In this document: one piece after another, positions 2,841 through 50,806 of the stretch
Layout: every line of letters starts with the position of its first letter
Position numbering within the stretch: the stretch's first letter is position 1
DNA from: an uncultured Candidatus Saccharibacteria bacterium
Lineage (GTDB): Bacteria > Patescibacteriota > Minisyncoccia > UBA6257 > JAUSGH01
DNA: 64,000 nucleotides
Assembly (NCBI GenBank): GCA_964360025.1
Contig: CAYHUD010000001.1
Location: 3,922-67,921, forward strand
Reading direction: 5' to 3'
Notes under the pieces: generated by a model
What the model was told of the DNA's origin: nothing
Databases searched by the model: none
The model's input: the letters and a program-made list of their open reading frames with translations, nothing else
Made by a program: the position numbers and the translations under genes

Positions 2841-2878
2841 TGTCCACTATCTCGTCCCATGGGACGAGATAGTGGACA
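2841..2878. repeat. family B 38-bp perfect palindrome
   Basis: tgtccactatctcgtcccatgggacgagatagtggaca; flanks gene 2916-3491 on the 5' side. Confidence 0.85.
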
Positions 2879-2915
2879 AATATCAAAAAAATAATAAGCT
2901 GTGTAATATATCAAT

Positions 2916-3491
2916 ATGCGTGGAGATTTAATTCTATTCGTATTAAAAACGCTTCAAGTTGGCGCCCTATCCGTTACTGCGATCGCAGATTTACTGGATG
3001 AACACAGCATTCGCAATACCAATGCCTCTTTTTGGGGGCATCCTATAAAATCACCTCCGAAGCGCAGGATGATTTTTGAAGATAAAATAAATTCTCTCTC
3101 GCGGCAAAGGATGTTGGCTAAAATGGTATCAAAATTAAAATCTGAGGGGCTGGTGGTAAAAGACAAACAAGATATATGTGGGATAACAAAAAACGGCATA
3201 GTAAAATTGGGAAAATTATTAAATCTTAGAAGTCAGACGCCGAATTATGTCACCGAACAATCAAACGAGGTTAAAATAATCACCTTTGATATTCCGGAAT
3301 CAAAAAGGTCATCCCGTGTTTGGTTAAGACAAGCTTTAAAAAATCTCCGATTTAACTTTTTACAAAAAAGCGTCTGGGTGGGCAAAACTATAATCCCCCA
3401 CGAGTTCTTAAGCGATCTCCGCCAAAGAGAAATCTTTGATTTTGTAGAAATACTCGCAGTCACTAAAAAAGGCACGCTCCGTCAAATATAA
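2916..3491 (+). CDS. winged-helix DNA-binding protein with C-terminal Cas2/VapD-like domain (AT-rich gene)
   Basis: N-terminal wHTH-like segment; C-terminal 'KIITFDIPESKRSSRVWLRQALKNLRFNFLQKSVWVGK' matches Cas2 signature (YDI...KRR...L...G.R.Q.SVF); no cas1 or CRISPR array nearby. Confidence 0.5.
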   Translation: MRGDLILFVLKTLQVGALSVTAIADLLDEHSIRNTNASFWGHPIKSPPKRRMIFEDKINSLSRQRMLAKMVSKLKSEGLVVKDKQDICGITKNGIVKLGKLLNLRSQTPNYVTEQSNEVKIITFDIPESKRSSRVWLRQALKNLRFNFLQKSVWVGKTIIPHEFLSDLRQREIFDFVEILAVTKKGTLRQI

Positions 3492-3494
3492 AAA

Positions 3495-3531
3495 TCCCCT
3501 ATCTCGTCCCATGGGACGAGATGGGGGACAA
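3495..3531. repeat. family B palindrome (tcccctatctcgtcccatgggacgagatgggggaca)
   Basis: flanks gene 2916-3491 on the 3' side, 4 nt after stop. Confidence 0.8.
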
Positions 3532-4526: not shown

Positions 4527-4559
4527 GTGTCCCTGCGGGACATCTCCCGAAGGGATGAC
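4527..4559 (+). repeat. family C twin-hairpin motif copy 2 (gtgtccctgcgggacatctcccgaagggatgac)
   Basis: same orientation and context (just after a terminator) as copies 1 and 3. Confidence 0.6.
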
Positions 4560-4562
4560 CAC

Positions 4563-4683
4563 GCTTCGCTCTCAATGACAACAGATGGAGATTCTTCGCG
4601 CAACGCTCAGAATGACAGAAAAACCGCTCTAGCGACGGCGGCCATCGGCTCGCCAAAGCTCTAGCGACGGCGGCCGTGAAATG
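4563..4683. repeat. family A fragment (gagattcttcgcgcaacgctcagaatgaca) plus 2x direct repeat 'ctctagcgacggcggcc'; overlaps 3' end of recombinase gene
   Basis: direct sequence match to family A modules; 17-bp exact duplication 40 bp apart. Confidence 0.6.
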
Positions 4684-5620
4684 TCTTATGAATATCCTTC
4701 AGTTCCTTATTAGTGATATGAGTATAGACCTGCGTTGTCGCAATATTGCTATGCCCCAAAAGCTCCTGTACAGCACGAAGGTCGGCGCCGTTCATCAGCA
4801 AATCGGTCGCGAAAAGATGGCGTAAACTGTGCGGCGTGAGCCGCTTTCCCGCTATCCCCGCCTTCGCCCCATAAAAATGAATAAGCCGCTGAATGGTGCG
4901 CGGCACGATGCGCCCAATCATTTTGGGATTCTTTGCTTTAGTAAAACTAACGAATAAAGCCTCGTCAGCATCGGTCCTCTTGTCCAAATAATTTTTAATA
5001 CTCGTCTTGGCTTTATCCGACAAAAATACAATGCGCAGCTTGTCGCCTTTGCCGCGGATGGTGAGCTCGCCTTTTTGTAAATCAAGATAACGATTCAGCT
5101 TGCAAAGCTCCGAAATACGAAGGCCTGTGGAAAAAAGTGTTTCTAGAATCGCCCTGTCGCGCAGGGTTTTAACTTCATCTCCCGCAGGCGCGGCTAAGAG
5201 ACGCACCAGCTCGGGGTATTCAATCACCTCAATTTGTCGCGAGACGGCCTTGGGAAGCTCTATTTTGTCGGGCGATAAAACATCGTAATCACGTTTGGTG
5301 AGATACTTCAAAAAATTACGGATGGCGATGACATAGTAGCTCTGCGTGGACTTTTTGAGCGGTTCGCCACTGCGCGTGCTTTCACGCGCTAAACTGATGC
5401 GAAAAGCCCGCACCGCCTCGGGAGTAATATCGGCTATGTTCTTAACTCCGGAACTACTGACGAATCGTGTTAAATACCGCTCGTAGTTTTCCCGCGTCTT
5501 CGGTGAGCGATTTTTTTCCACCTCCAAATAATCCAAATATTCTTTTAAAAGTTTGGCGATCACACTTCTATTATATAATATTTTGCGACAGTTGCCGCCT
5601 TGCTTTGCGACAAAGACCAT
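4661..5620 (-). CDS. xerD: tyrosine site-specific recombinase, XerC/XerD family
   Basis: C-terminal catalytic signature ...HSLRHLFATDLL...LLGHSNIATTQVYTHI; start may be internal GTG. Confidence 0.85.
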   Translation of the reverse strand: MVFVAKQGGNCRKILYNRSVIAKLLKEYLDYLEVEKNRSPKTRENYERYLTRFVSSSGVKNIADITPEAVRAFRISLARESTRSGEPLKKSTQSYYVIAIRNFLKYLTKRDYDVLSPDKIELPKAVSRQIEVIEYPELVRLLAAPAGDEVKTLRDRAILETLFSTGLRISELCKLNRYLDLQKGELTIRGKGDKLRIVFLSDKAKTSIKNYLDKRTDADEALFVSFTKAKNPKMIGRIVPRTIQRLIHFYGAKAGIAGKRLTPHSLRHLFATDLLMNGADLRAVQELLGHSNIATTQVYTHITNKELKDIHKTFHGRRR

Positions 5621-7479: not shown

Positions 7480-7563
7480 GTTTTAAAATCCCCGAACTGG
7501 GGGTTTTAATTTAAATACGGATTGATATTTTACCCGAATAAAGCTATTATATAGGGTAGCAAC

Positions 7564-7636
7564 GCGCGTGTAGCTCAACGGTTAGAGCATCGAGCTTATA
7601 CCTCGGGGGTTCATGGTTCGAATCCATGCACGCGCA
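7564..7636 (+). tRNA. tRNA-Ile, apparent anticodon UAU (loop CTTATAC); no CCA encoded
   Basis: cloverleaf: acceptor GCGCGTG/CACGCGC, D GCTC/GAGC, T-arm CATGG-TTCGAAT-CCATG. Confidence 0.65.
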
Positions 7637-7652
7637 CAAAATAGCAGGTTTT

Positions 7653-7724: not shown

Positions 7725-7804
7725 CAAATAGAATTTGTGCCGCGAAGGAATCGGATCGGGAAAAGGGATTTTAGGCTAGTAAAATAGTGACTTGGTCGGG
7801 GATA

Positions 7805-7890: not shown

Positions 7891-8112
7891 ATGCCCAGCC
7901 AACTCAAGCGCAAGTTCACGACCGACGAGGGGCCGCACGCGCGGTTCCTCGAGTCCTGCCGGCACGGTGCCGATGTGGCGCCGCCGCCGCAGAAACCGTG
8001 TTCCCGCAACGCGCGGGAGCACAACTTCGGGGACTTCCACTCCGCGCGGCAAATCGCCGCCGCGGAGCGGATGGAGCAAGAAGACGAAGCCAATCAGGGC
8101 CTCGTCAACTAG
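7891..8112 (+). CDS. small hypothetical protein (73 aa), GC-rich
   Basis: GGAGGG RBS 8 nt upstream; high GC3. Confidence 0.45.
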   Translation: MPSQLKRKFTTDEGPHARFLESCRHGADVAPPPQKPCSRNAREHNFGDFHSARQIAAAERMEQEDEANQGLVN

Positions 8113-8430: not shown

Positions 8431-8522
8431 ACGCACCGCCACCAGGAGGTGGCGGCAACGAGAACTCTCAAACCAAGACCCAGGGGGTCAGAGGTATGAG
8501 AGTTCTTTTTTTATTTAAAGAA

Positions 8523-8692
8523 AGAGAGATTCTTCGCGGGACGCCTGCCTGCCGGCAGGCAGGCTCAGAATGACGAAGGGGTTGTTACCCTCCTGGAATT
8601 AAATTCTGTCATCCTGAGGTTTACCGAAGGATCTCAAGTGAGATTCTTCGCGGGACGCCTGCCTGCCGGCAGGCAGGCTCAGAATGACGATC
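8523..8692. repeat. family A repeat array 1 (2 long units gagattcttcgcgggacgcctgcctgccggcaggcaggctcagaatgacga + 1 mirror unit tgtcatcctgag..gaaggatctc)
   Basis: exact 51-bp unit at 8525-8575 and 8639-8690. Confidence 0.85.
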
Positions 8693-11365: not shown

Positions 11366-11386
11366 CCCCGCACTTTTACAATCTTT

Positions 11387-11429
11387 GGATACGCCACTTC
11401 CAAAGTAAAACTTTGGAAGTGGCGTATCC
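11387..11429 (+). terminator. perfect 19-bp stem hairpin (ggatacgccacttccaaag-taaaa-ctttggaagtggcgtatcc)
   Basis: follows yraN stop; weak T-run, so it may instead act as a regulatory hairpin. Confidence 0.45.
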
Positions 11430-11455
11430 ACGTTTGCATATTTGGATGCGGCGAA

Positions 11456-20201: not shown

Positions 20202-20233
20202 GTCCCCCTGCGGGGGATCTCCCAAAGGGAGAC
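20202..20233 (+). repeat. family C twin-hairpin motif copy 3 (gtccccctgcgggggatctcccaaagggagac)
   Basis: directly after clpP. Confidence 0.6.
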
Positions 20234-26753: not shown

Positions 26754-26791
26754 TGTCCACTATCTCGTCCCATGGGACGAGATAGTGGACA
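26754..26791. repeat. family B 38-bp perfect palindrome
   Basis: tgtccactatctcgtcccatgggacgagatagtggaca. Confidence 0.85.
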
Positions 26792-26868
26792 ATCTACGCG
26801 GTATCAGAGGCGGGAAACTTGCCGATTAACATATAAAAGTGTATCTTATAGACAGCATCGCGCGATAT

Positions 26869-26958
26869 GGAGGCGTGGCCGAGCGGCTTAAGGCAGCATC
26901 CTGCTAAGATGTTGTCCGCGAAAGCGGACCGGAGGTTCGAATCCTCCCGCCTCCGCCA
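26869..26958 (+). tRNA. tRNA-Ser (anticodon GCU), CCA encoded
   Basis: acceptor GGAGGCG/CGCCTCC, anticodon loop CTGCTAA, long variable hairpin GTCCGC-GAAA-GCGGAC, T-loop GGTTCGAATCC. Confidence 0.8.
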
Positions 26959-34719: not shown

Positions 34720-34748
34720 TTATTATAGCACACTATCTACCCGCTTGT
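34720..34748 (-). promoter_or_regulatory. sigma70-type promoter on minus strand (TTGACA-N17-TATAAT) for 34170-34670; spacer contains family B half-site 'cactatct'
   Basis: reverse complement of 34715-34752 reads ttgacaagcgggtagatagtgtgctataat. Confidence 0.45.
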
Positions 34749-34769: not shown

Positions 34770-35477
34770 TTATAGGGTCTTCGTCGGGGGCTCGGTATCG
34801 TATTTTTTCAATATTTCAAAGTCGTTAAGCAGGAAAAAGGCGGCTGCCACAAGCAGGGCAGTGGCCACAAGCGACTCCGGACCGTAGACGATAATAAGAT
34901 GGTTGAAGATGGCATGGAGAAGCGTAGCAACTCCAATGCCCTCAATGATCATCAGTTTAAAACCGCTCTTTTGAAGCATTGCCAGACCCCAATAATAGCC
35001 GACGAAGGCGGAGCTGACGCTGTGAAGCAGGGTGGCGCCGATAAATCTTAAAGAAAGCAAAGAGATACCCATAGCCGAAATCGTGCTTCCGTTTTCACCG
35101 TTTAAAATAGACGCGACATTCTCCACAGCGGCGAAACCCAGGGCAACGACGATCATATAGATCATGGCATCCAGCGGCTCATCAAAATCACGGGTGCGTG
35201 AGACCAGAAAATAAACAGCTAAGAATTTAAAGACTTCTTCCACTAAACTTAAGACAAAAAGCGGAACAAAACCATACTGCGTAGTGCCAAAGTCGGCAAA
35301 AAAATTACTAAGAAACATTTGCGGCCCCAAAACAAAAAAAGTAACCAGCGCTCCGGCGATGAAAGTATAGATAATCAGACTTTTCGGCTCCGGGTGCGCC
35401 TCATCTTCACGGATAAAAAAGTATAGCCAGATGAAGCTGGGAATGAAACCTAACAAAAGGGCGGGGATTAATGACAT
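34770..35477 (-). CDS. PrsW-family intramembrane protease-like protein
   Basis: multi-TM; EExxK (VEEVFKF) and His-containing TM motifs. Confidence 0.45.
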   Translation of the reverse strand: MSLIPALLLGFIPSFIWLYFFIREDEAHPEPKSLIIYTFIAGALVTFFVLGPQMFLSNFFADFGTTQYGFVPLFVLSLVEEVFKFLAVYFLVSRTRDFDEPLDAMIYMIVVALGFAAVENVASILNGENGSTISAMGISLLSLRFIGATLLHSVSSAFVGYYWGLAMLQKSGFKLMIIEGIGVATLLHAIFNHLIIVYGPESLVATALLVAAAFFLLNDFEILKKYDTEPPTKTL

Positions 35478-35532
35478 CTGACTTAATTATAGACCTGGTG
35501 ATAAAACACGGCAAACAAATATCTGGCGCGCA

Positions 35533-35671
35533 GATAAACTATCTTTCGGACACGGCGTTCTTCGCCCCGGCCGGCGAAGCCGCCTCGCTCTCGGCGAACT
35601 ATCGCTCGAAACTAAAACGAGCGAACCGTGCTAGCTCGCCTTCGAGATGTTCCTTAAGATAGTTTATCCTC
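35533..35671. repeat. inverted-repeat-bounded element (gataaactatct ... agatagtttatc, ~115 bp internal with nested hairpins)
   Basis: 12-bp perfect terminal inverted repeats; shares ACTATCT/AGATAGT core with family B. Confidence 0.5.
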
Positions 35672-35697
35672 GCGCTCGTGGTTCACCCCCACACAAA

Positions 35698-37920
35698 CTA
35701 CCACTTCTCAACAATCAGCCAGGACTTATTTTCCACGGGAAGTTTCTGATAAATTTCTTCGGTCAAATGAGGCATAAAGAGGTGTAGGATCTTTAATGAC
35801 TCAAGGAGAATATAGCCCAGAACGGCATTCGTATTTTCATCAATCTGCTTTTTGGACTCCTCAAGATAGATATCGCAGAAATCATGCCAGAAAAAATCAT
35901 AAACCTCATGGAGCGCCGCACCCATATTATATTTTTTAATGCCGGCCTCCACGGATTTTTTGACTGATTTGAGTCGCGCGATGATTTTTTTATCAGCGGC
36001 GGTTTTTGGCTTTACGCTTTGCTCTTTGCCCTTTGCGCTTCGCGCCAGAACAAACCGCGCCGCATTCCAAATTTTATTGGCGAACTTTTTACCGGCCATA
36101 ACTGCCGCCTCATCCCAACGGACGTCCTGTCCGCCCATCGCCTGCCAGATGATGCCAAACCTAGTGGCATCGGCGCCGTATTTTGAAACGAGCTCAAGAG
36201 GATCCACGCCCGTGCCCAGTGACTTAGACATTCTCCGGCCATCTTTTGCGAGCACGGTCGCGTGAATGAGCGCCGTCTTAAAAGGCGTTTTCCCACCCAT
36301 AAATTCCAGGCCGGAAAAAATCATGCGACCAACCCAGAGATTGATAATATCACGGGCGGTAATCAGGACATCTGAGGGATAAAATAATTGCAAATCGGTT
36401 TGAGAAAGTCCTGCAAACGGCCACAAAGCTGAAGAGAACCATGTATCCAGGACATCCTCTGACTGAACAAACTCCGCATCGCAAAATTCGCACCCAGGTT
36501 TTGCAAGAGATACAATCATATCTTTGCACTTTACTATTTCGTCTTCGTGGCCGGACTTGGGCACGCACTTCGGCTCGTGGAACCAAACAGGAAGACGATG
36601 CCCCCACCAAATCTGGCGGGAAATGCACCAGTCCTTAATATTTTTTAGCCAGTCAAAAAACGGTTTTTCAAAATTTTTGGGAACAATCTTTGTTTTACCG
36701 GATTTAACAGTTTTTGCCGTCGCTTTTGCCAGTTTATCCATATCCATAAACCATTGATTGGAAAGAATAGGTTCCAGAGTGCTGTCACAACGGTAGCACT
36801 TTGCCACATTGTGTTTGTAGTCCTCTATTTTTTCCATTAAGTTTTGGCTCTCCAGCTCCGCTATGACTTTCTCGCGACATTCGGAAATTTTCAAGCCATC
36901 GCACACCGCTCCGACATTTTTCATACGGCCGCGTTCGCTGATAATTTCATAACTCGGCAAATCATGGCGTCCGGCAATTTCGTTATCCAGCAAATCATGC
37001 GCCGGAGTTACTTTTACCATTCCGGTGCCAAAGGTTATATCAATAGCATCGTCGCCAATTATGGGAATCTCCCGATTAACTATCGGCAAGACAGCTTTTT
37101 TTCCGATCAAATTTTTATACCGCTTATCTTTTGGGTTCACTGCCACAGCCGCATCGCCCAACATTGTTTCCGGGCGGGTAGTCGCGACAACGATAAAATC
37201 TTTAGTATTGTCATTCTGAGGCGAAGCCGAAGAATCTTTTTGAGATCCTTCGGGTGCACTCAGGATGACAGAATCTGGAGTAGTACTTAAGAGGGGATAT
37301 TTAATAAAATAAAGCTTGCCCGTCTCTTCTTTGTGTTCAATTTCCAGATCGGAAAGAGAAGTGCCGCAACGAACGCACCACGAAACCATTCTTTTGCCGC
37401 GATAAATGAAACCTTTTTCGTAATAATGCACGAATACCTTAAGCACTTCCTCGCTATAAGACGGGTCCATGGTAAAACGCGTACGGCTCCAGTCGGCAGA
37501 AGCCCCGAGGCGTTTTAGCTGGTCAAGAATGATATTGCCGTATTTGGCTTTCCATTCCCAAACTTTTTCCACAAACTTCTCGCGGCCGAGATCAAAGCGA
37601 CTGATATTTTCTTTACGCAAGTTTTTTTCCACCACATTTTGCGCGGCGATACCGGCATGGTCTATGCCCGGGAGCCAGGCGGTTTTAAAACCCTTCATCC
37701 GATGATAACGAATCAAAATATCCGTCGTTGTGGCATTTAAGGCGTGACCCATGTGCAATGACCCTGTTATATTCGGCGGCGGAAGGAGGACGGTGTAGGA
37801 TTTTTTACCTTTTCCCGGAGCAAAAAAACCGCGCGAGAGCCACTCTCCGTAAATGCGGGTTTCCACTGACTTGGGATCGTAAGCTGATGACGCTTCCTGC
37901 TTTTTATTTAGGTCTTCCAT
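35698..37920 (-). CDS. valS: valyl-tRNA synthetase (compact form)
   Basis: HIGH (PPNITGSLHMGHAL), TTRPETMLGD, KMSKS (RMSKSLGT). Confidence 0.9.
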   Translation of the reverse strand: MEDLNKKQEASSAYDPKSVETRIYGEWLSRGFFAPGKGKKSYTVLLPPPNITGSLHMGHALNATTTDILIRYHRMKGFKTAWLPGIDHAGIAAQNVVEKNLRKENISRFDLGREKFVEKVWEWKAKYGNIILDQLKRLGASADWSRTRFTMDPSYSEEVLKVFVHYYEKGFIYRGKRMVSWCVRCGTSLSDLEIEHKEETGKLYFIKYPLLSTTPDSVILSAPEGSQKDSSASPQNDNTKDFIVVATTRPETMLGDAAVAVNPKDKRYKNLIGKKAVLPIVNREIPIIGDDAIDITFGTGMVKVTPAHDLLDNEIAGRHDLPSYEIISERGRMKNVGAVCDGLKISECREKVIAELESQNLMEKIEDYKHNVAKCYRCDSTLEPILSNQWFMDMDKLAKATAKTVKSGKTKIVPKNFEKPFFDWLKNIKDWCISRQIWWGHRLPVWFHEPKCVPKSGHEDEIVKCKDMIVSLAKPGCEFCDAEFVQSEDVLDTWFSSALWPFAGLSQTDLQLFYPSDVLITARDIINLWVGRMIFSGLEFMGGKTPFKTALIHATVLAKDGRRMSKSLGTGVDPLELVSKYGADATRFGIIWQAMGGQDVRWDEAAVMAGKKFANKIWNAARFVLARSAKGKEQSVKPKTAADKKIIARLKSVKKSVEAGIKKYNMGAALHEVYDFFWHDFCDIYLEESKKQIDENTNAVLGYILLESLKILHLFMPHLTEEIYQKLPVENKSWLIVEKW
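37208..37270. repeat. family A palindromic element inserted in frame within valS (tgtcattctgaggcgaagccgaagaatctttttgagatccttcgggtgcactcaggatgaca)
   Basis: encodes ValRS segment ...ILSAPEGSQKDSSASPQNDNT... Confidence 0.75.
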
Positions 37921-42774: not shown

Positions 42775-42812
42775 TGTCCCCTATCTCGTCCCATGGGACG
42801 AGATAGGGGACA
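42775..42812. repeat. family B palindrome (tgtcccctatctcgtcccatgggacgagataggggaca)
   Basis: direct reading. Confidence 0.85.
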
Positions 42813-42892
42813 AAATAAAAAACACCTCGGCTACAAAGACACTCTTAACAGGAGTGGTTTTGTTTTGAACGTCTTTGTTCCTGAATCCGAAA

Positions 42893-42930
42893 TGTCTACT
42901 ATCTCAAACGATCGTTTGAGATAGTAGACA
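42893..42930. repeat. family B variant palindrome with different centre (tgtctactatctcaaacgatcgtttgagatagtagaca)
   Basis: conserved outer arms ACTATCTC/GAGATAGT, centre replaced by aaacgatcgttt. Confidence 0.8.
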
Positions 42931-42988: not shown

Positions 42989-43017
42989 TTGACATTTTGG
43001 GGATATGGTGCTATAAT
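42989..43017 (+). promoter_or_regulatory. sigma70-type promoter TTGACA-N17-TATAAT (distal of two tandem perfect promoters)
   Basis: direct reading. Confidence 0.5.
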
Positions 43018-43153: not shown

Positions 43154-43182
43154 TTGACACATAACCGCGCGTTTGCTATAAT
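43154..43182 (+). promoter_or_regulatory. sigma70-type promoter TTGACA-N17-TATAAT (proximal; ~100-nt leader to ATG 43292)
   Basis: direct reading. Confidence 0.5.
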
Positions 43183-43291: not shown

Positions 43292-44248
43292 ATGAACCAG
43301 CAGGACGAGACCTTTTTCTGGGGTCGCTTCATCAAGCTGGTGAAGGCGGCCTACGAGCACTTCGTCATCTCGATGACCGCCAAGGAGGCGGTCAGCAAGA
43401 TGGCGGACGAGGCCAAGAAGAGCCTCGATGCGGCCTACCGCCTCAGCGATGACGACCCCACGAGAGGGGAAGCCATCGCCGCGGGGCGGGAGCTCCGCTC
43501 CGCCGCATTCTCCGGGAAGGCGGAGGCGGAAAAGAGCCGCGCTCTGGCGCAGAAGTGCCAGAAGGAAGCGGCGAAAGAAATGCAGAGCGTCATCGCGGAC
43601 GCTCTGCACACCGATTCTGCTCTGCAGGACGCGGAGCGGGGGGCTTGCAACGGCGCGCTCGGCACCCTACAGGCGGCGGTGGCGGGGGGTTCGCTCCCGC
43701 CCGGCGGTCTCAAGACCGCAGAGCTCGTGACCCGACAGGCAGGATATCCCCGCCTCGCCGGGAACATCGCGAAGACCATGGCGGTCTTCGCGATGATCGC
43801 CACCAGAGAAAGCGATCTAGCGGCTGTCTTCCCCGGGTGGTCTGCCGGGTATTACCGGGGAGTCAGGGGGCTCCTCGGTGCTCTCCGGGACCTGGACTGG
43901 AAAATCAAGGTCACGGATCAGCGGGTCCAGGACCTGCGTAAGCAGGACCCGCGGGAAGAACTTCTGGCTGCCGAACGGCGGCTGAAGGAGCTCCAGCGGG
44001 CCGCGTCCGTGAAGGATGCGGTGCTCGCGGAGCTCCGGGTCTCCGTCCCGGAGACCTGGTTCGCCGAGGGCCCCCGGAAGCAGGGCGCTTCCGAGGCCTC
44101 CGCCCCGATCCTCCTCCACCCCGCCACGGAGGTCATCCAGATGGAGACCTCGGTGGCGAAGGATGCCGAGCGCGACGCCCGTAAGGGCAAGCGCGACGCC
44201 GAAAAGGCAGCGAAGGCGGCCAAGCGGACCAACGTCCGCGAGGCCTAG
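43292..44248 (+). CDS. hypothetical alpha-helical protein (318 aa), strongly GC-rich gene
   Basis: long ORF with GC3-rich codons; no recognisable motif. Confidence 0.55.
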   Translation: MNQQDETFFWGRFIKLVKAAYEHFVISMTAKEAVSKMADEAKKSLDAAYRLSDDDPTRGEAIAAGRELRSAAFSGKAEAEKSRALAQKCQKEAAKEMQSVIADALHTDSALQDAERGACNGALGTLQAAVAGGSLPPGGLKTAELVTRQAGYPRLAGNIAKTMAVFAMIATRESDLAAVFPGWSAGYYRGVRGLLGALRDLDWKIKVTDQRVQDLRKQDPREELLAAERRLKELQRAASVKDAVLAELRVSVPETWFAEGPRKQGASEASAPILLHPATEVIQMETSVAKDAERDARKGKRDAEKAAKAAKRTNVREA

Positions 44249-44398: not shown

Positions 44399-44456
44399 CG
44401 AGCCCACCCACACACGAACGAAAACGCGTTCTGTGAGTGGGTGGGCTCAATTTTTT
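44399..44456 (+). terminator. rho-independent terminator (gagcccacccacacacgaacgaaaacgcgttctgtgagtgggtgggctc + T6)
   Basis: long hairpin + T-run. Confidence 0.65.
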
Positions 44457-44477
44457 AAGGATACATATTTGGGGATT

Positions 44478-44610
44478 AGAGATCCTTCGCAAAGCTCAGA
44501 ATGACAAAAATTGTCATCCTGAGTGTTGCACGAAGGATCTCGAAAAAGAGATTCTTCGCAAAGCTCAGAATGACAGAGCTCTGCGTTCAGAATGACGAAA
44601 TAAATAATCT
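44478..44610. repeat. family A repeat array 2
   Basis: units agagatccttcgcaaagctcagaatgaca / tgtcatcctgag..gaaggatctc / gagattcttcgcaaagctcagaatgaca / ttcagaatgacga. Confidence 0.8.
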
Positions 44611-45452: not shown

Positions 45453-45472
45453 TTTATGGGGAGAGGATCAAG

Positions 45473-45730
45473 TAGAGATTCTTCGCGCGACGCCTGCCTG
45501 CCGGCAGGCAGGCTCAGAATGACAAGGTGTAAAGCTCAGAAAGACAGGAGGAAAACGCGAATCAGGATGACCAAATGCGACGTTTAAGATGACAGAGGGG
45601 AACCGTGTCATCCTGAGGTCTACCGAAGGATCTCGGGATTGAGATTCTTCGCAAGGCCTGCCGGCAGGCAGGCAGGCTCAGAATGACAACGTGTTGCGCT
45701 TAGAACGACAGGGCTCTGCGCTCAGAATGA
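45473..45730. repeat. family A repeat array 3
   Basis: multiple gagattcttcgc..ctcagaatgaca, tgtcatcctgag..gaaggatctc and gcctgcctgccggcaggcaggc modules. Confidence 0.85.
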
Positions 45731-45752
45731 CGAAAAAGTAATAAGATAATTA

Positions 45753-46040: not shown

Positions 46041-46047
46041 AAAATTT

Positions 46048-46332
46048 AGAGATTCTTCGCGCGACGCCTGCCTGCCGGCAGGCAGGCTCAGAATGACGGA
46101 GAGTGGTGTCGGCGTCCTGGAATTAAATTCTGTCATCCTGAGCGAAGCGAAGGATCTCGGAATTGAGATTCTTCGCGAAGCTCAGAATGACTAGTGAATG
46201 TTTGTCATCCTGAGACTAGTTTCTGTCATCCTGAGGTTTGACGAAGGATCTCGGAAAAGAGATTCTTCGCGAAGCTCAGAATGACAAGGTGCAAAGCTCA
46301 GAATGACAAAGTGTTGCGCTCAGAATGACAAA
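46048..46332. repeat. family A repeat array 4
   Basis: five or more modules, begins 8 nt upstream of GIY-YIG start. Confidence 0.85.
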
Positions 46333-46340
46333 AATAAAAA

Positions 46341-49509: not shown

Positions 49510-50391
49510 ATGCACCAACGACTCGGACAACACTTTTTAATCAATAAATCGGCTATTGCGGAAACAATTGCCGCATTGACATTGGAGGAAAATGATTTAG
49601 TTGTGGAGATCGGGCCCGGGCATGGAGCTCTTACGCTACCCCTAGCTCAAAAATGTGTAGGTTTTAACTGCAAAATCATGGCTATTGAGAAAGACGCCGC
49701 GCTTGTGGATAACCTGTCAGAAACGATGCGGAAATACGGCAATATGGTGCAAATTATTGCCGGGGATGCGCTCGAAGAACTGCCTAAACTCGCAAAGCGC
49801 GAATCGCTGGGCGATGAAGACGGAAAAGGGTGGAAACTGGTGGGAAATATACCCTATTACATCACCGGAAAATTGCTAAGAATCATCGGGGAGCTAGAAA
49901 ATAAGCCCCACATTACGGTTTTGATGGTCCAAAAAGAAGTCGCGGAAAGGATAACAGCCACTCCAAAAGGGGGAATGAATCCCGTTAGAAGTAGCCCGCC
50001 CATAGGCCCTTCGGGCGCGCTTCGCGCGGGCGCGACTTCTAACGGGATGAATCTGCTTGCCGCCGCAACTCAATTCTGGAGCGATATTTCCATCATAAAA
50101 CGCTTAAAACCTAGCGATTTTGATCCGCCGCCAGAGGTGGACTCGGCAATAATTAAATTAAAGATCAAAGATCAAAGATCAAAAAGACGGGAGGCTGAGG
50201 GTTATTATAAATTGATCAAAATTGCCTTTAAACAACCAAGAAAGACGCTTTTGAATAACCTTGTAGATGGTCTTGATGATAAAAAAGAGGTGATTTTACA
50301 GAAAATCGCCGATTTGGGCTTTAACGAAAAAACTCGGGGGCAAGAATTGAGCGTGGAACAGCTTTTGGTTTTGGCGAGATCCTTCGGCTAA
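49510..50391 (+). CDS. rsmA: 16S rRNA (adenine1518/1519-N6)-dimethyltransferase RsmA/KsgA
   Basis: LGQHFL, VEIGPGHGALT, GNIPYYITGKLL; contains in-frame family D insertion; 3' end lies in repeat. Confidence 0.85.
   Translation: MHQRLGQHFLINKSAIAETIAALTLEENDLVVEIGPGHGALTLPLAQKCVGFNCKIMAIEKDAALVDNLSETMRKYGNMVQIIAGDALEELPKLAKRESLGDEDGKGWKLVGNIPYYITGKLLRIIGELENKPHITVLMVQKEVAERITATPKGGMNPVRSSPPIGPSGALRAGATSNGMNLLAAATQFWSDISIIKRLKPSDFDPPPEVDSAIIKLKIKDQRSKRREAEGYYKLIKIAFKQPRKTLLNNLVDGLDDKKEVILQKIADLGFNEKTRGQELSVEQLLVLARSFG
49979..50048. repeat. family D palindromic element inserted in frame in rsmA, flanked by ATGAAT direct duplication
   Basis: cccgttagaagt...acttctaacggg; encodes extra NPVRSSPPIGPSGALRAGATSNG between duplicated GMN codons. 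Confidence 0.7.
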
Positions 50392-50745
50392 CACCTCAGG
50401 ATGATAAAGAATAACCTCGGGACAACAAACACAACCCTGTCATTCTGAGCCTGCCTGCCCGCTTCGCCCGCCTAGACTCGGCGAGGCCTGGCCGTGGCTT
50501 CAGCGAGGCGAGCCGGCAGGCAGGCGTTGCGCGAAGAATCTCGAGATCCTTCGCTTCGCTCAGGATGACAAAAATTAGCCTCGGGATGGTCAACTAAGTA
50601 ACGAGATCCTTCGGCTAACACCTCGGGATGATAAAGAATAACCTCGGGACAACAAACACAACCCTGTCATTCTGAGCGTTGCGCGAAGAATCTCGAGATC
50701 CTTCGCTTCGCTCAGGATGACAAAAATTGGTTTCGGGATGGTTCG
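50380..50745. repeat. family A repeat array 5, includes ~225-bp tandem duplication (50386-50610 / 50611-50745) and nested long palindrome 50449-50526
   Basis: 'gagatccttcggctaacacctc.ggatgataaagaataacctcgggacaacaaacacaaccctgtcattctgagc' present twice. Confidence 0.85.
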
Positions 50746-50806
50746 CTAAGTGGTGCGAACCACTTATTCACATCTTGTTCACATCGGAGAATGATATAAT
50801 AAAGTA

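Follow-up and report, generated by a model that had tools for sequence, protein, structure and literature searches.

The window analysed here, 64,000 nucleotides (64 kb) of contig CAYHUD010000001.1 from an uncultured groundwater bacterium of the Candidate Phyla Radiation (CPR, or Patescibacteria), contains a gene at positions 2916–3491 that encodes a winged helix joined to a Cas2-fold domain and that lies between two copies of a long palindrome, one upstream (site U) and one downstream (site D). Comparison of the gene with its homologues, and of its flanking sites with the operator of the Escherichia coli repressor PaaX, suggests that it codes for an autoregulated minimal PaaX-type repressor with paired operators, a reading to which we assign a probability of about two in three. 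Counts of palindrome copies given below for this genome cover the 64-kb window.

The sequence-only reading had proposed an AT-rich gene whose product fuses a winged helix-turn-helix region to a segment with a Cas2 signature. The gene indeed exists and is AT-rich (GC content 0.38 vs. 0.48 for the window), and the fusion is confirmed at the level of both sequence and fold. The Pfam model PF20803 (PaaX_M, PaaX protein central Cas2-like domain) matches residues 121–186 with an E-value of 4.8e-11 and 43 bits, well above its cutoff of 24, and a precomputed PF20803 annotation is present in 11 of 11 close homologues. The AlphaFold2 model (pLDDT 84) displays a helical winged-helix N-domain followed by a C-domain of β-α-β-β-α-β topology, i.e. 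the ferredoxin-like fold of Cas2, and the best structural neighbour retrieved by Foldseek is E. coli PaaX, followed by Cas2. The C-domain, used as a single-sequence query against the PDB sequences, retrieved nothing. As to the Cas2 signature, the fold and an Asp at the catalytic position are kept, whereas the Cas2 family models remain below their cutoffs (18.7 bits for PF09827, cutoff 23.8; 18.8 bits for TIGR01573, cutoff 24.5); these two models and the PADLOC Cas2 model align to residues 121–158 only, corresponding to profile positions ~4–40, i.e. the first half of the profile. Apart from PaaX_M and these weak Cas2 matches, Pfam reveals no domain in the protein, in particular no HUH (IS200/IS605-type) transposase domain, and PHROGs yielded nothing. 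Scans for tandem repeats (TRF) and direct repeats found no CRISPR array in the 64 kb, as had been noted before, and no Cas1 occurs among the genes called beside the homologues, no explicit cas1 search having been made in the window. The protein has the Cas2 fold but is not a Cas2, either by model thresholds or by genomic context. It is of the PaaX type by domain and fold, yet falls short of the full PaaX definition because the ligand domain is absent: there is no Pfam match to PaaX_C and the chain stops at residue 191, directly past PaaX_M. It is therefore better described as a PaaX-type regulator without ligand domain (PaaX N and M domains) than as a Cas2. Within the family the C-domain is strongly conserved, with invariant FDIPE, QKSVW and VTKxGTLRQ motifs, and the N-domain is variable, a pattern that would fit a shifting DNA specificity carried on a constant dimer core. 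The FDIPE motif of strand β1 places its Asp at the position of the catalytic Asp of Cas2; E. coli PaaX is not known to have this Cas2-like motif.

A profile search of 1.84 billion representative sequences yielded 4391 relatives when the threshold was E<1e-3; E<1e-30 was reached by 557, so that the family comprises at least 557 clusters (50% identity) of full-length relatives. Members are ~190 residues long; the best 150 of the listed relatives range from 151 to 214 residues and nearly all of them align across most of the profile. All 34 matches in the GTDB representative genomes belong to metagenome-assembled genomes of Patescibacteria/CPR, some of which carry two paralogues, and the exact 191-residue protein was found in Hainich groundwater metagenomes. 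The 38-bp palindrome of the window has no match in the GTDB representative genomes, and viral contigs contain neither relatives of the protein nor matches to the palindrome. A full-text literature search found no description of a module made of a palindrome, a gene and a second palindrome.

In order to obtain insight into the organization of this module, we compared 45 distinct homologous loci, all from Patescibacteria. About 40 of them carry, on both flanks of the gene, a palindrome of 36–42 bp that is specific to the lineage (examples from L011, L008, L010 and L036 are given in the table); L046 and the truncated L048 show no flanking sites at all. Median distances are 47 nt from the upstream dyad to the ATG, 40 nt from the stop codon to the downstream dyad and 674 bp between the two dyads. 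The core at the dyad is nearly invariant, CGA/TCG and less often CGG/CCG (the slash marks the dyad), and the CCA/TGG of the window is an outlier. GATC, GGCC and CATG are typical methyltransferase sites, and a link between them and the conserved dyad core is a matter of speculation. Within ±10 kb of the homologues, other long zero-loop palindromes are almost absent: those recovered have centres of 2–6 nt or cores other than CG(A/G)(T/C)CG, and several (e.g. L059–L062) resemble terminator hairpins flanked by A and T. The 'far' palindrome of L037 flanks a second paralogue, and paralogues within one genome have differing palindromes (L040 and L042). Comparing U with D of the same genome, positions 1–4 and 13–17 from the dyad are conserved and positions 5–12 variable; likewise, among species of the clade to which the window belongs, the inner arm changes and the outer one, TGTCCAnTATC, is kept. 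Differences between U and D within genomes include 29 that are compensated on both arms, where ~1.3 are expected, and 83 that affect a single arm (L054 excluded). Such compensation can arise neutrally through quasipalindrome template switching, so that the compensated changes reflect this neutral correction or else selection that favours pairing within a strand, as hairpin or cruciform.

A few loci deserve separate mention. In L043 (7562–8669) the palindromes are nested, an identical pair CCATTAGAACTTTCGTGACGATCGTCACGAAAGTTCTAATGG occurring at 7562 and 8628 and a different CGATCG-centred one at 7782, just 5' of the gene. At 7900–7990 of L003 the upstream palindrome of the homologue is apparently broken at its GATC core by ~28 nt (CTCCTTCGCTAAAGCTACGGCGGACAAG), and its right arm has decayed. 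The public contig of L007 (ERZ978523 contig k127_1191050) folds back on itself perfectly over 15.4 kb, with its centre exactly at the palindrome upstream of the homologue (dyad ~7702). This is almost certainly an artefact of assembly to which the palindrome gave rise, and it led the gene caller to truncate the homologue to 125 residues (P0005).

The operator of E. coli PaaX is TGATTC(N27)GAATCA, and at Px, the promoter of its own gene, the protein acts as a repressor through steric hindrance (PMC9493321). Site U of the window, TGTCCA(N26)TGGACA, has the same architecture and length, its dyad lies 56 nt 5' of the ATG, and it is a probable autoregulatory operator. With a dyad at about −47 from the ATG across the family and −10-like hexamers a few nucleotides 5' of the ATG at several loci, one half-site would be placed on or beside the core promoter. 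Identity of the winged helix, controlled for the C-domain, is correlated with similarity of the outer boxes (partial Mantel r=0.24, p=0.0005) and uncorrelated with similarity of the spacer (r=0.04, p=0.22); this test is open to inflation by shared ancestry, the contrast between outer boxes and spacer remaining informative. Of the two hypotheses put forward by the sequence-only reading, the one in which the palindromes are operators of an autoregulated regulator is thus well supported by the comparative loci and by the geometry of the E. coli PaaX operator.

We propose that the protein, which combines a DNA-binding winged helix with the Cas2-fold domain through which PaaX dimerises and has no C-terminal part for ligand binding, would bind the long palindrome as a homodimer. 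Its two winged helices would read the outer boxes TGTCCAnTATC, ~12–19 positions from the dyad, and the dimerised Cas2-fold core would be positioned over the dyad. Binding at U, beside or over the gene's own promoter, would result in negative autoregulation, as for PaaX at Px. Site D is a conserved part of the module; its retention at 0–60 nt from the stop codon suggests, as the most likely roles, either cooperation with U via looping over ~670 bp or a protein roadblock that would insulate the gene from neighbouring transcription. A role of D as operator of the next gene was considered and is countered by its retention beside convergent neighbours: the downstream gene is convergent in 10 of 38 loci, and D is present in six (L010, L011, L034, L040, L044 and L064). 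The four further copies in the window would be either extra targets or passively spread.

Several points weigh against this reading, in addition to the possible contribution of shared ancestry to the Mantel correlation. In the window, a consensus scan of the stretch from U to the start codon detects no canonical sigma-70 promoter; all that can be seen there is a TAATAT hexamer, 6 nt 5' of the ATG, so that the overlap between U and the promoter is only inferred. A plain operator accounts neither for the palindromic symmetry of the N26 spacer, with its excess of compensated changes, nor for the retention of D next to convergent genes. Moreover, the extra copies in the window lie off the obvious promoters.

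These copies were analysed in detail. The 38-bp palindrome TGTCCACTATCTCGTCCCATGGGACGAGATAGTGGACA is perfect at 2841–2878 and at 26754–26791, was matched in none of 100 shuffles, and its perfect dyads reach 40–46 bp once the flanks are counted. It had been stated to be perfect on both sides of the gene; this holds for the upstream flank only, because D, whose dyad lies 20 nt past the stop codon, is degenerate, with 5 positions off the consensus and arms of its own that pair at 16 of 17 positions. In the strain variant L002, an A in place of G at 3523 restores the symmetry of D. The further copies announced are all real, that at 26754–26791 being perfect and those at 959–996 (1 mismatch) and 42775–42812 (2 changes) not identical. 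The first of the imperfect ones sits between the stop codon (1006) of a Band_7 gene and the ribosome-binding site and ATG (946) of a gene for a Gly/Pro-rich protein of 195 residues, both on the minus strand; the second is located 32 nt past tRNA-Lys, in its 3' trailer, ahead of a terminator-like hairpin at 42840–42866. The centre-swapped variant at 42893–42930 was also described correctly: its outer arms are those of the 38-mer and resemble the ones of homologues L013 and L031, the inner arms differ, and the core is the family-typical CGATCG. A perfect consensus promoter follows, its first hexamer (start 42989) 59 nt further downstream, and the variant could be the cognate site of a second paralogue encoded in another part of the genome.

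Two other similarities noted previously carry less weight. The half-site at 34729–34736 is a single 7/8-mer that falls in the spacer of a promoter-like site recognised by eye, and does not exceed chance. The split repeats at 35533/35671 form a real 20-bp inverted repeat, having in common with the palindrome only the 7-mer ACTATCT, which occurs 16 times in total (3.6 expected), 8 of the 16 inside the palindromes. This inverted repeat, between the minus-strand genes 34770–35477 and 35698–37920, may be either a small structured element or a palindrome that an insertion has divided.

Table. Gene, flanking sites and related repeats in the window, and palindromes of four homologous loci
Feature	Position	Strand	Description
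Minimal PaaX-type gene	2916–3491	+	191 aa; winged helix ~1–110, Cas2-fold PaaX_M ~115–190
Upstream site U	2841–2878	no strand	Perfect 38-bp palindrome, 42 bp including TTT/AAA flanks
Downstream site D	3493–3531	no strand	Degenerate copy, begins 2–4 nt past the stop codon
Extra copy	959–996	no strand	38-mer with 1 central mismatch
Extra copy	26754–26791	no strand	Perfect 38-mer, 78 nt upstream of tRNA-Ser(GCU)
Extra copy	42775–42812	no strand	One compensated pair change, A6>C with T33>G
Variant palindrome	42893–42930	no strand	TGTCTACTATCTCAAACGATCGTTTGAGATAGTAGACA; perfect palindrome of its own
Inverted repeat	35526–35675	no strand	20 bp, 2 mismatches, around ~100 nt GC-rich: GCGCG(CA)GATAAACTATCTT / AAGATAGTTTATC(CT)CGCGC
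Palindrome of locus L011			TCCAGTATCTTTCCGATCGGAAAGATACTGGA
Palindrome of locus L008			AATCTACCAACTCCGACGATCGTTGGAGTTGGTAGATT
Palindrome of locus L010			TTCCTTTCCTAACTACACCGATCGTTGTAGTTAGGAAAGGAA
Palindrome of locus L036			CTCCTTTTACTCACGATCGTGAGTAAAAGGAG

The idea that the other copies mark a regulon of this protein appears weakly supported, since such copies are common in this genome only and lie off obvious promoters. The window holds 4 solitary extra copies, all intergenic, vs. ~1 (L045) in 356 kb of other loci, and the dispersal is therefore peculiar to this genome. An alternative that we regard as a real possibility, somewhat short of even odds, is that the flanking sites are true operators and that the four extra copies are non-functional, having spread passively in a genome prone to dispersing hairpin repeats. 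Indeed, the window holds several other families of dispersed GC-rich hairpin repeats, and the rarity of extra copies in the other 40 loci and their position away from evident promoters point in the same direction. On the other hand, passive spread does not readily explain that the extra copies are all intergenic and nearly perfect whereas the flanking D copy has decayed, nor that one of them lies 5' of tRNA-Ser(GCU), as does the upstream site in L032.

A tRNA-Ser(GCU) gene is found beside a palindrome of the family both in the window (26754–26958) and in L032 (1806–2012). In L032 the palindrome sits between the divergent tRNA-Ser(GCU) and regulator genes, and in the window the copy is 78 nt 5' of the tRNA; this association could be a conserved target or a coincidence (n=2). 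A general association of the module with tRNA genes was rejected, tRNA-Ser(GCU) alone recurring, in two cases. Two high-GC genes (0.57–0.60) of low complexity and without Pfam match adjoin palindrome copies, one at 359–946 (Gly/Pro-rich, by 959–996) and one at 43292–44248 (by 42893–42930), and both stand apart in composition from the remaining sequence of the window. Two promoters that fit the consensus perfectly (TTGACA-17-TATAAT with TG) are present 5' of the latter gene at 42989–43017 and 43154–43182, 165 bp apart, the first being followed only by very short open reading frames.

The dispersed hairpin modules are short and GC-rich, and cluster in intergenic regions (8520–8690, 44450–44600, 45470–45740, 46045–46340, 50375–50750, 145–176, 4527–4621 and 20202–20233; examples are CCTGCCTGCCGGCAGGCAGG, GCTCAGAATGAC/GTCATTCTGAGC and GAGATCCTTCGC/GCGAAGGATCTC). 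Similar modules are present in the relative L007, and they look like REP/MITE-like elements (repetitive extragenic palindromes/miniature inverted-repeat transposable elements) of CPR genomes.

A different explanation assigns the protein to DNA processing rather than to regulation, as in units of the REP/RAYT (REP-associated tyrosine transposase) or IS200 type: a Cas2-fold nuclease with invariant Asp/Glu would recognise the palindromes in hairpin or cruciform form, use the bracketing sites as ends for excision, copying or dispersal, and leave solitary copies as products or scars. Like RAYT genes bracketed by REPs, the gene is enclosed by its own lineage-specific palindrome, copies of which are dispersed in the window. 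Its near-perfect dyad symmetry, held by compensated changes, points to intrastrand pairing; FDIPE is invariant, with its Asp at the Cas2 catalytic position and the weak Cas2 model matches at the same place; and at loci with asymmetric sites (L035 and L047) U and D are direct repeats. We nevertheless consider this explanation unlikely. The gene is single-copy in the 64 kb, neither target-site duplications nor a transposase were seen, viral contigs hold no relatives or palindrome matches, solitary copies number ~1 in the 356 kb outside the window, the Cas2 family models stay below their cutoffs, and template switching can produce compensated changes neutrally. Moreover, within subclades synteny is held while the palindromes diverge in place beside the same housekeeping gene, a TrxB-like oxidoreductase in L027, L045 and L050 (in L053 an upstream open reading frame matches it in size) and RsmA in L008 and L016.

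The second hypothesis of the sequence-only reading, a small mobile cassette made of gene and palindromes, is not supported in view of the same facts, i.e. a gene that is single-copy in the window, conserved synteny in subclades and no viral relatives. The gene adjoins the same Xer-FtsH block in the window and in L007. A genomic island with tRNA-Leu (2113–2197) and an integrase-like gene (4661–5620) was considered and rejected because the Xer-like recombinase beside FtsH is syntenic in L007. A conserved partner gene was rejected as well: the two 259-residue neighbours, one in the window and one in L003, bear no relation to each other, and the neighbour genes have no Pfam, PADLOC or PHROG matches.

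It is also conceivable, with a low probability, that the protein, besides acting as a repressor, handles DNA in a structure-specific way, possibly by cutting or nicking via the acidic residues of FDIPE, with the palindromes as its hairpin or cruciform targets; the bracketing sites and the solitary copies would then be substrates or products of an undescribed Cas2-related, palindrome-centred DNA transaction comparable to REP/RAYT. If true, this would bear on the origin of the partnership between Cas2 and palindromic repeats.

Action at the RNA level, where the palindromes as hairpins would terminate, process or stabilise transcripts at gene ends and tRNA genes, with or without the protein, seems equally improbable: each copy does fold to a stem of 15–21 bp (−29 to −38 kcal/mol, z-score −7 to −10), D begins right past the stop codon and the 42775 copy lies in a tRNA-Lys 3' trailer before a terminator-like site, but no more than 3 of the 32 downstream sites precede a T-run (≥4), G:U pairs are not favoured in a strand-specific way among the mismatches (G:T 39, A:C 32, other 76), the sites are tied to gene and lineage unlike general terminators, and the outer boxes co-vary with the DNA-binding domain. 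Intrinsic terminators in particular, which consist of a GC-rich hairpin and a U-tract behind it, were rejected, the window copies having T before and A after the stem.

Two further features of the window may be mentioned. An unrelated perfect inverted repeat with 21-bp arms and a 3-nt loop is located at 11386–11430 (TGGATACGCCACTTCCAAAGT aaa ACTTTGGAAGTGGCGTATCCA). A tRNA-Ile with anticodon UAU (tat), uncommon in bacteria, adjoins tRNA-Val(UAC) 3' of FtsH at 7564–7637 and is kept in L007 (816–890).

Hardly any work has addressed the regulation of transcription in Patescibacteria, which cannot be cultivated on their own. Because the site recurs on either side of each gene and its half-sites are spaced much as in the operator of E. 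coli PaaX, operators should be predictable family-wide, so that sequence alone yields a probable cognate operator for each member of a family of at least 557 clusters. This represents a ready set of protein-DNA specificity pairs for studying the evolution of winged-helix recognition and for finding regulons in CPR bacteria. Site D, the palindromic spacer and the CGATCG core go beyond the PaaX precedent and may indicate an additional layer, for instance looping, insulation, cruciform formation or methylation sensitivity. The family is nearer to Cas2 in sequence than classical PaaX is, which is relevant to the recruitment of the Cas2 fold.

Comparison with known systems shows partial likeness to several of them. 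In looping repressors (lambda CI at OL/OR, GalR, LacI) the repressor gene likewise lies between two cognate operators, at distances from several hundred bp up to a few kb, and by analogy the paired sites could give cooperative autoregulation here too; the present module shows no sign of higher-order oligomerisation, has a single site per side and belongs to an unrelated fold family. REP/RAYT systems resemble it in having a single-copy gene bracketed by lineage-specific palindromic repeats with further intergenic copies in the same genome, whereas the protein studied here is not an HUH/IS200-type transposase, most genomes contain very few copies beyond the flanks, and each site is one long, perfect palindrome with the geometry of a PaaX operator. 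Cas2 and VapD share with it the β1 motif with Asp and a QxSVW motif, but here the domain is fused to a winged helix, the scores are below cutoff, the match covers half of the profile and the window has no array. Finally, PaaX, the phenylacetyl-CoA-responsive repressor of E. coli and Pseudomonas (PDB 8A39, 3L09), is longer (305 residues in the 8A39 chain vs. ~190 here) and possesses PaaX_C, to which phenylacetyl-CoA binds; the module described here has no paa genes nearby, is limited to Patescibacteria among the genome matches, and is distinguished by a palindromic spacer with a conserved CGATCG core and by a second site past the stop codon. PaaX nonetheless shares the outer inverted hexamers, separated by N27 there and N26 here, and its autorepression (PMC9493321) offers a precedent for the autoregulation proposed for this family.

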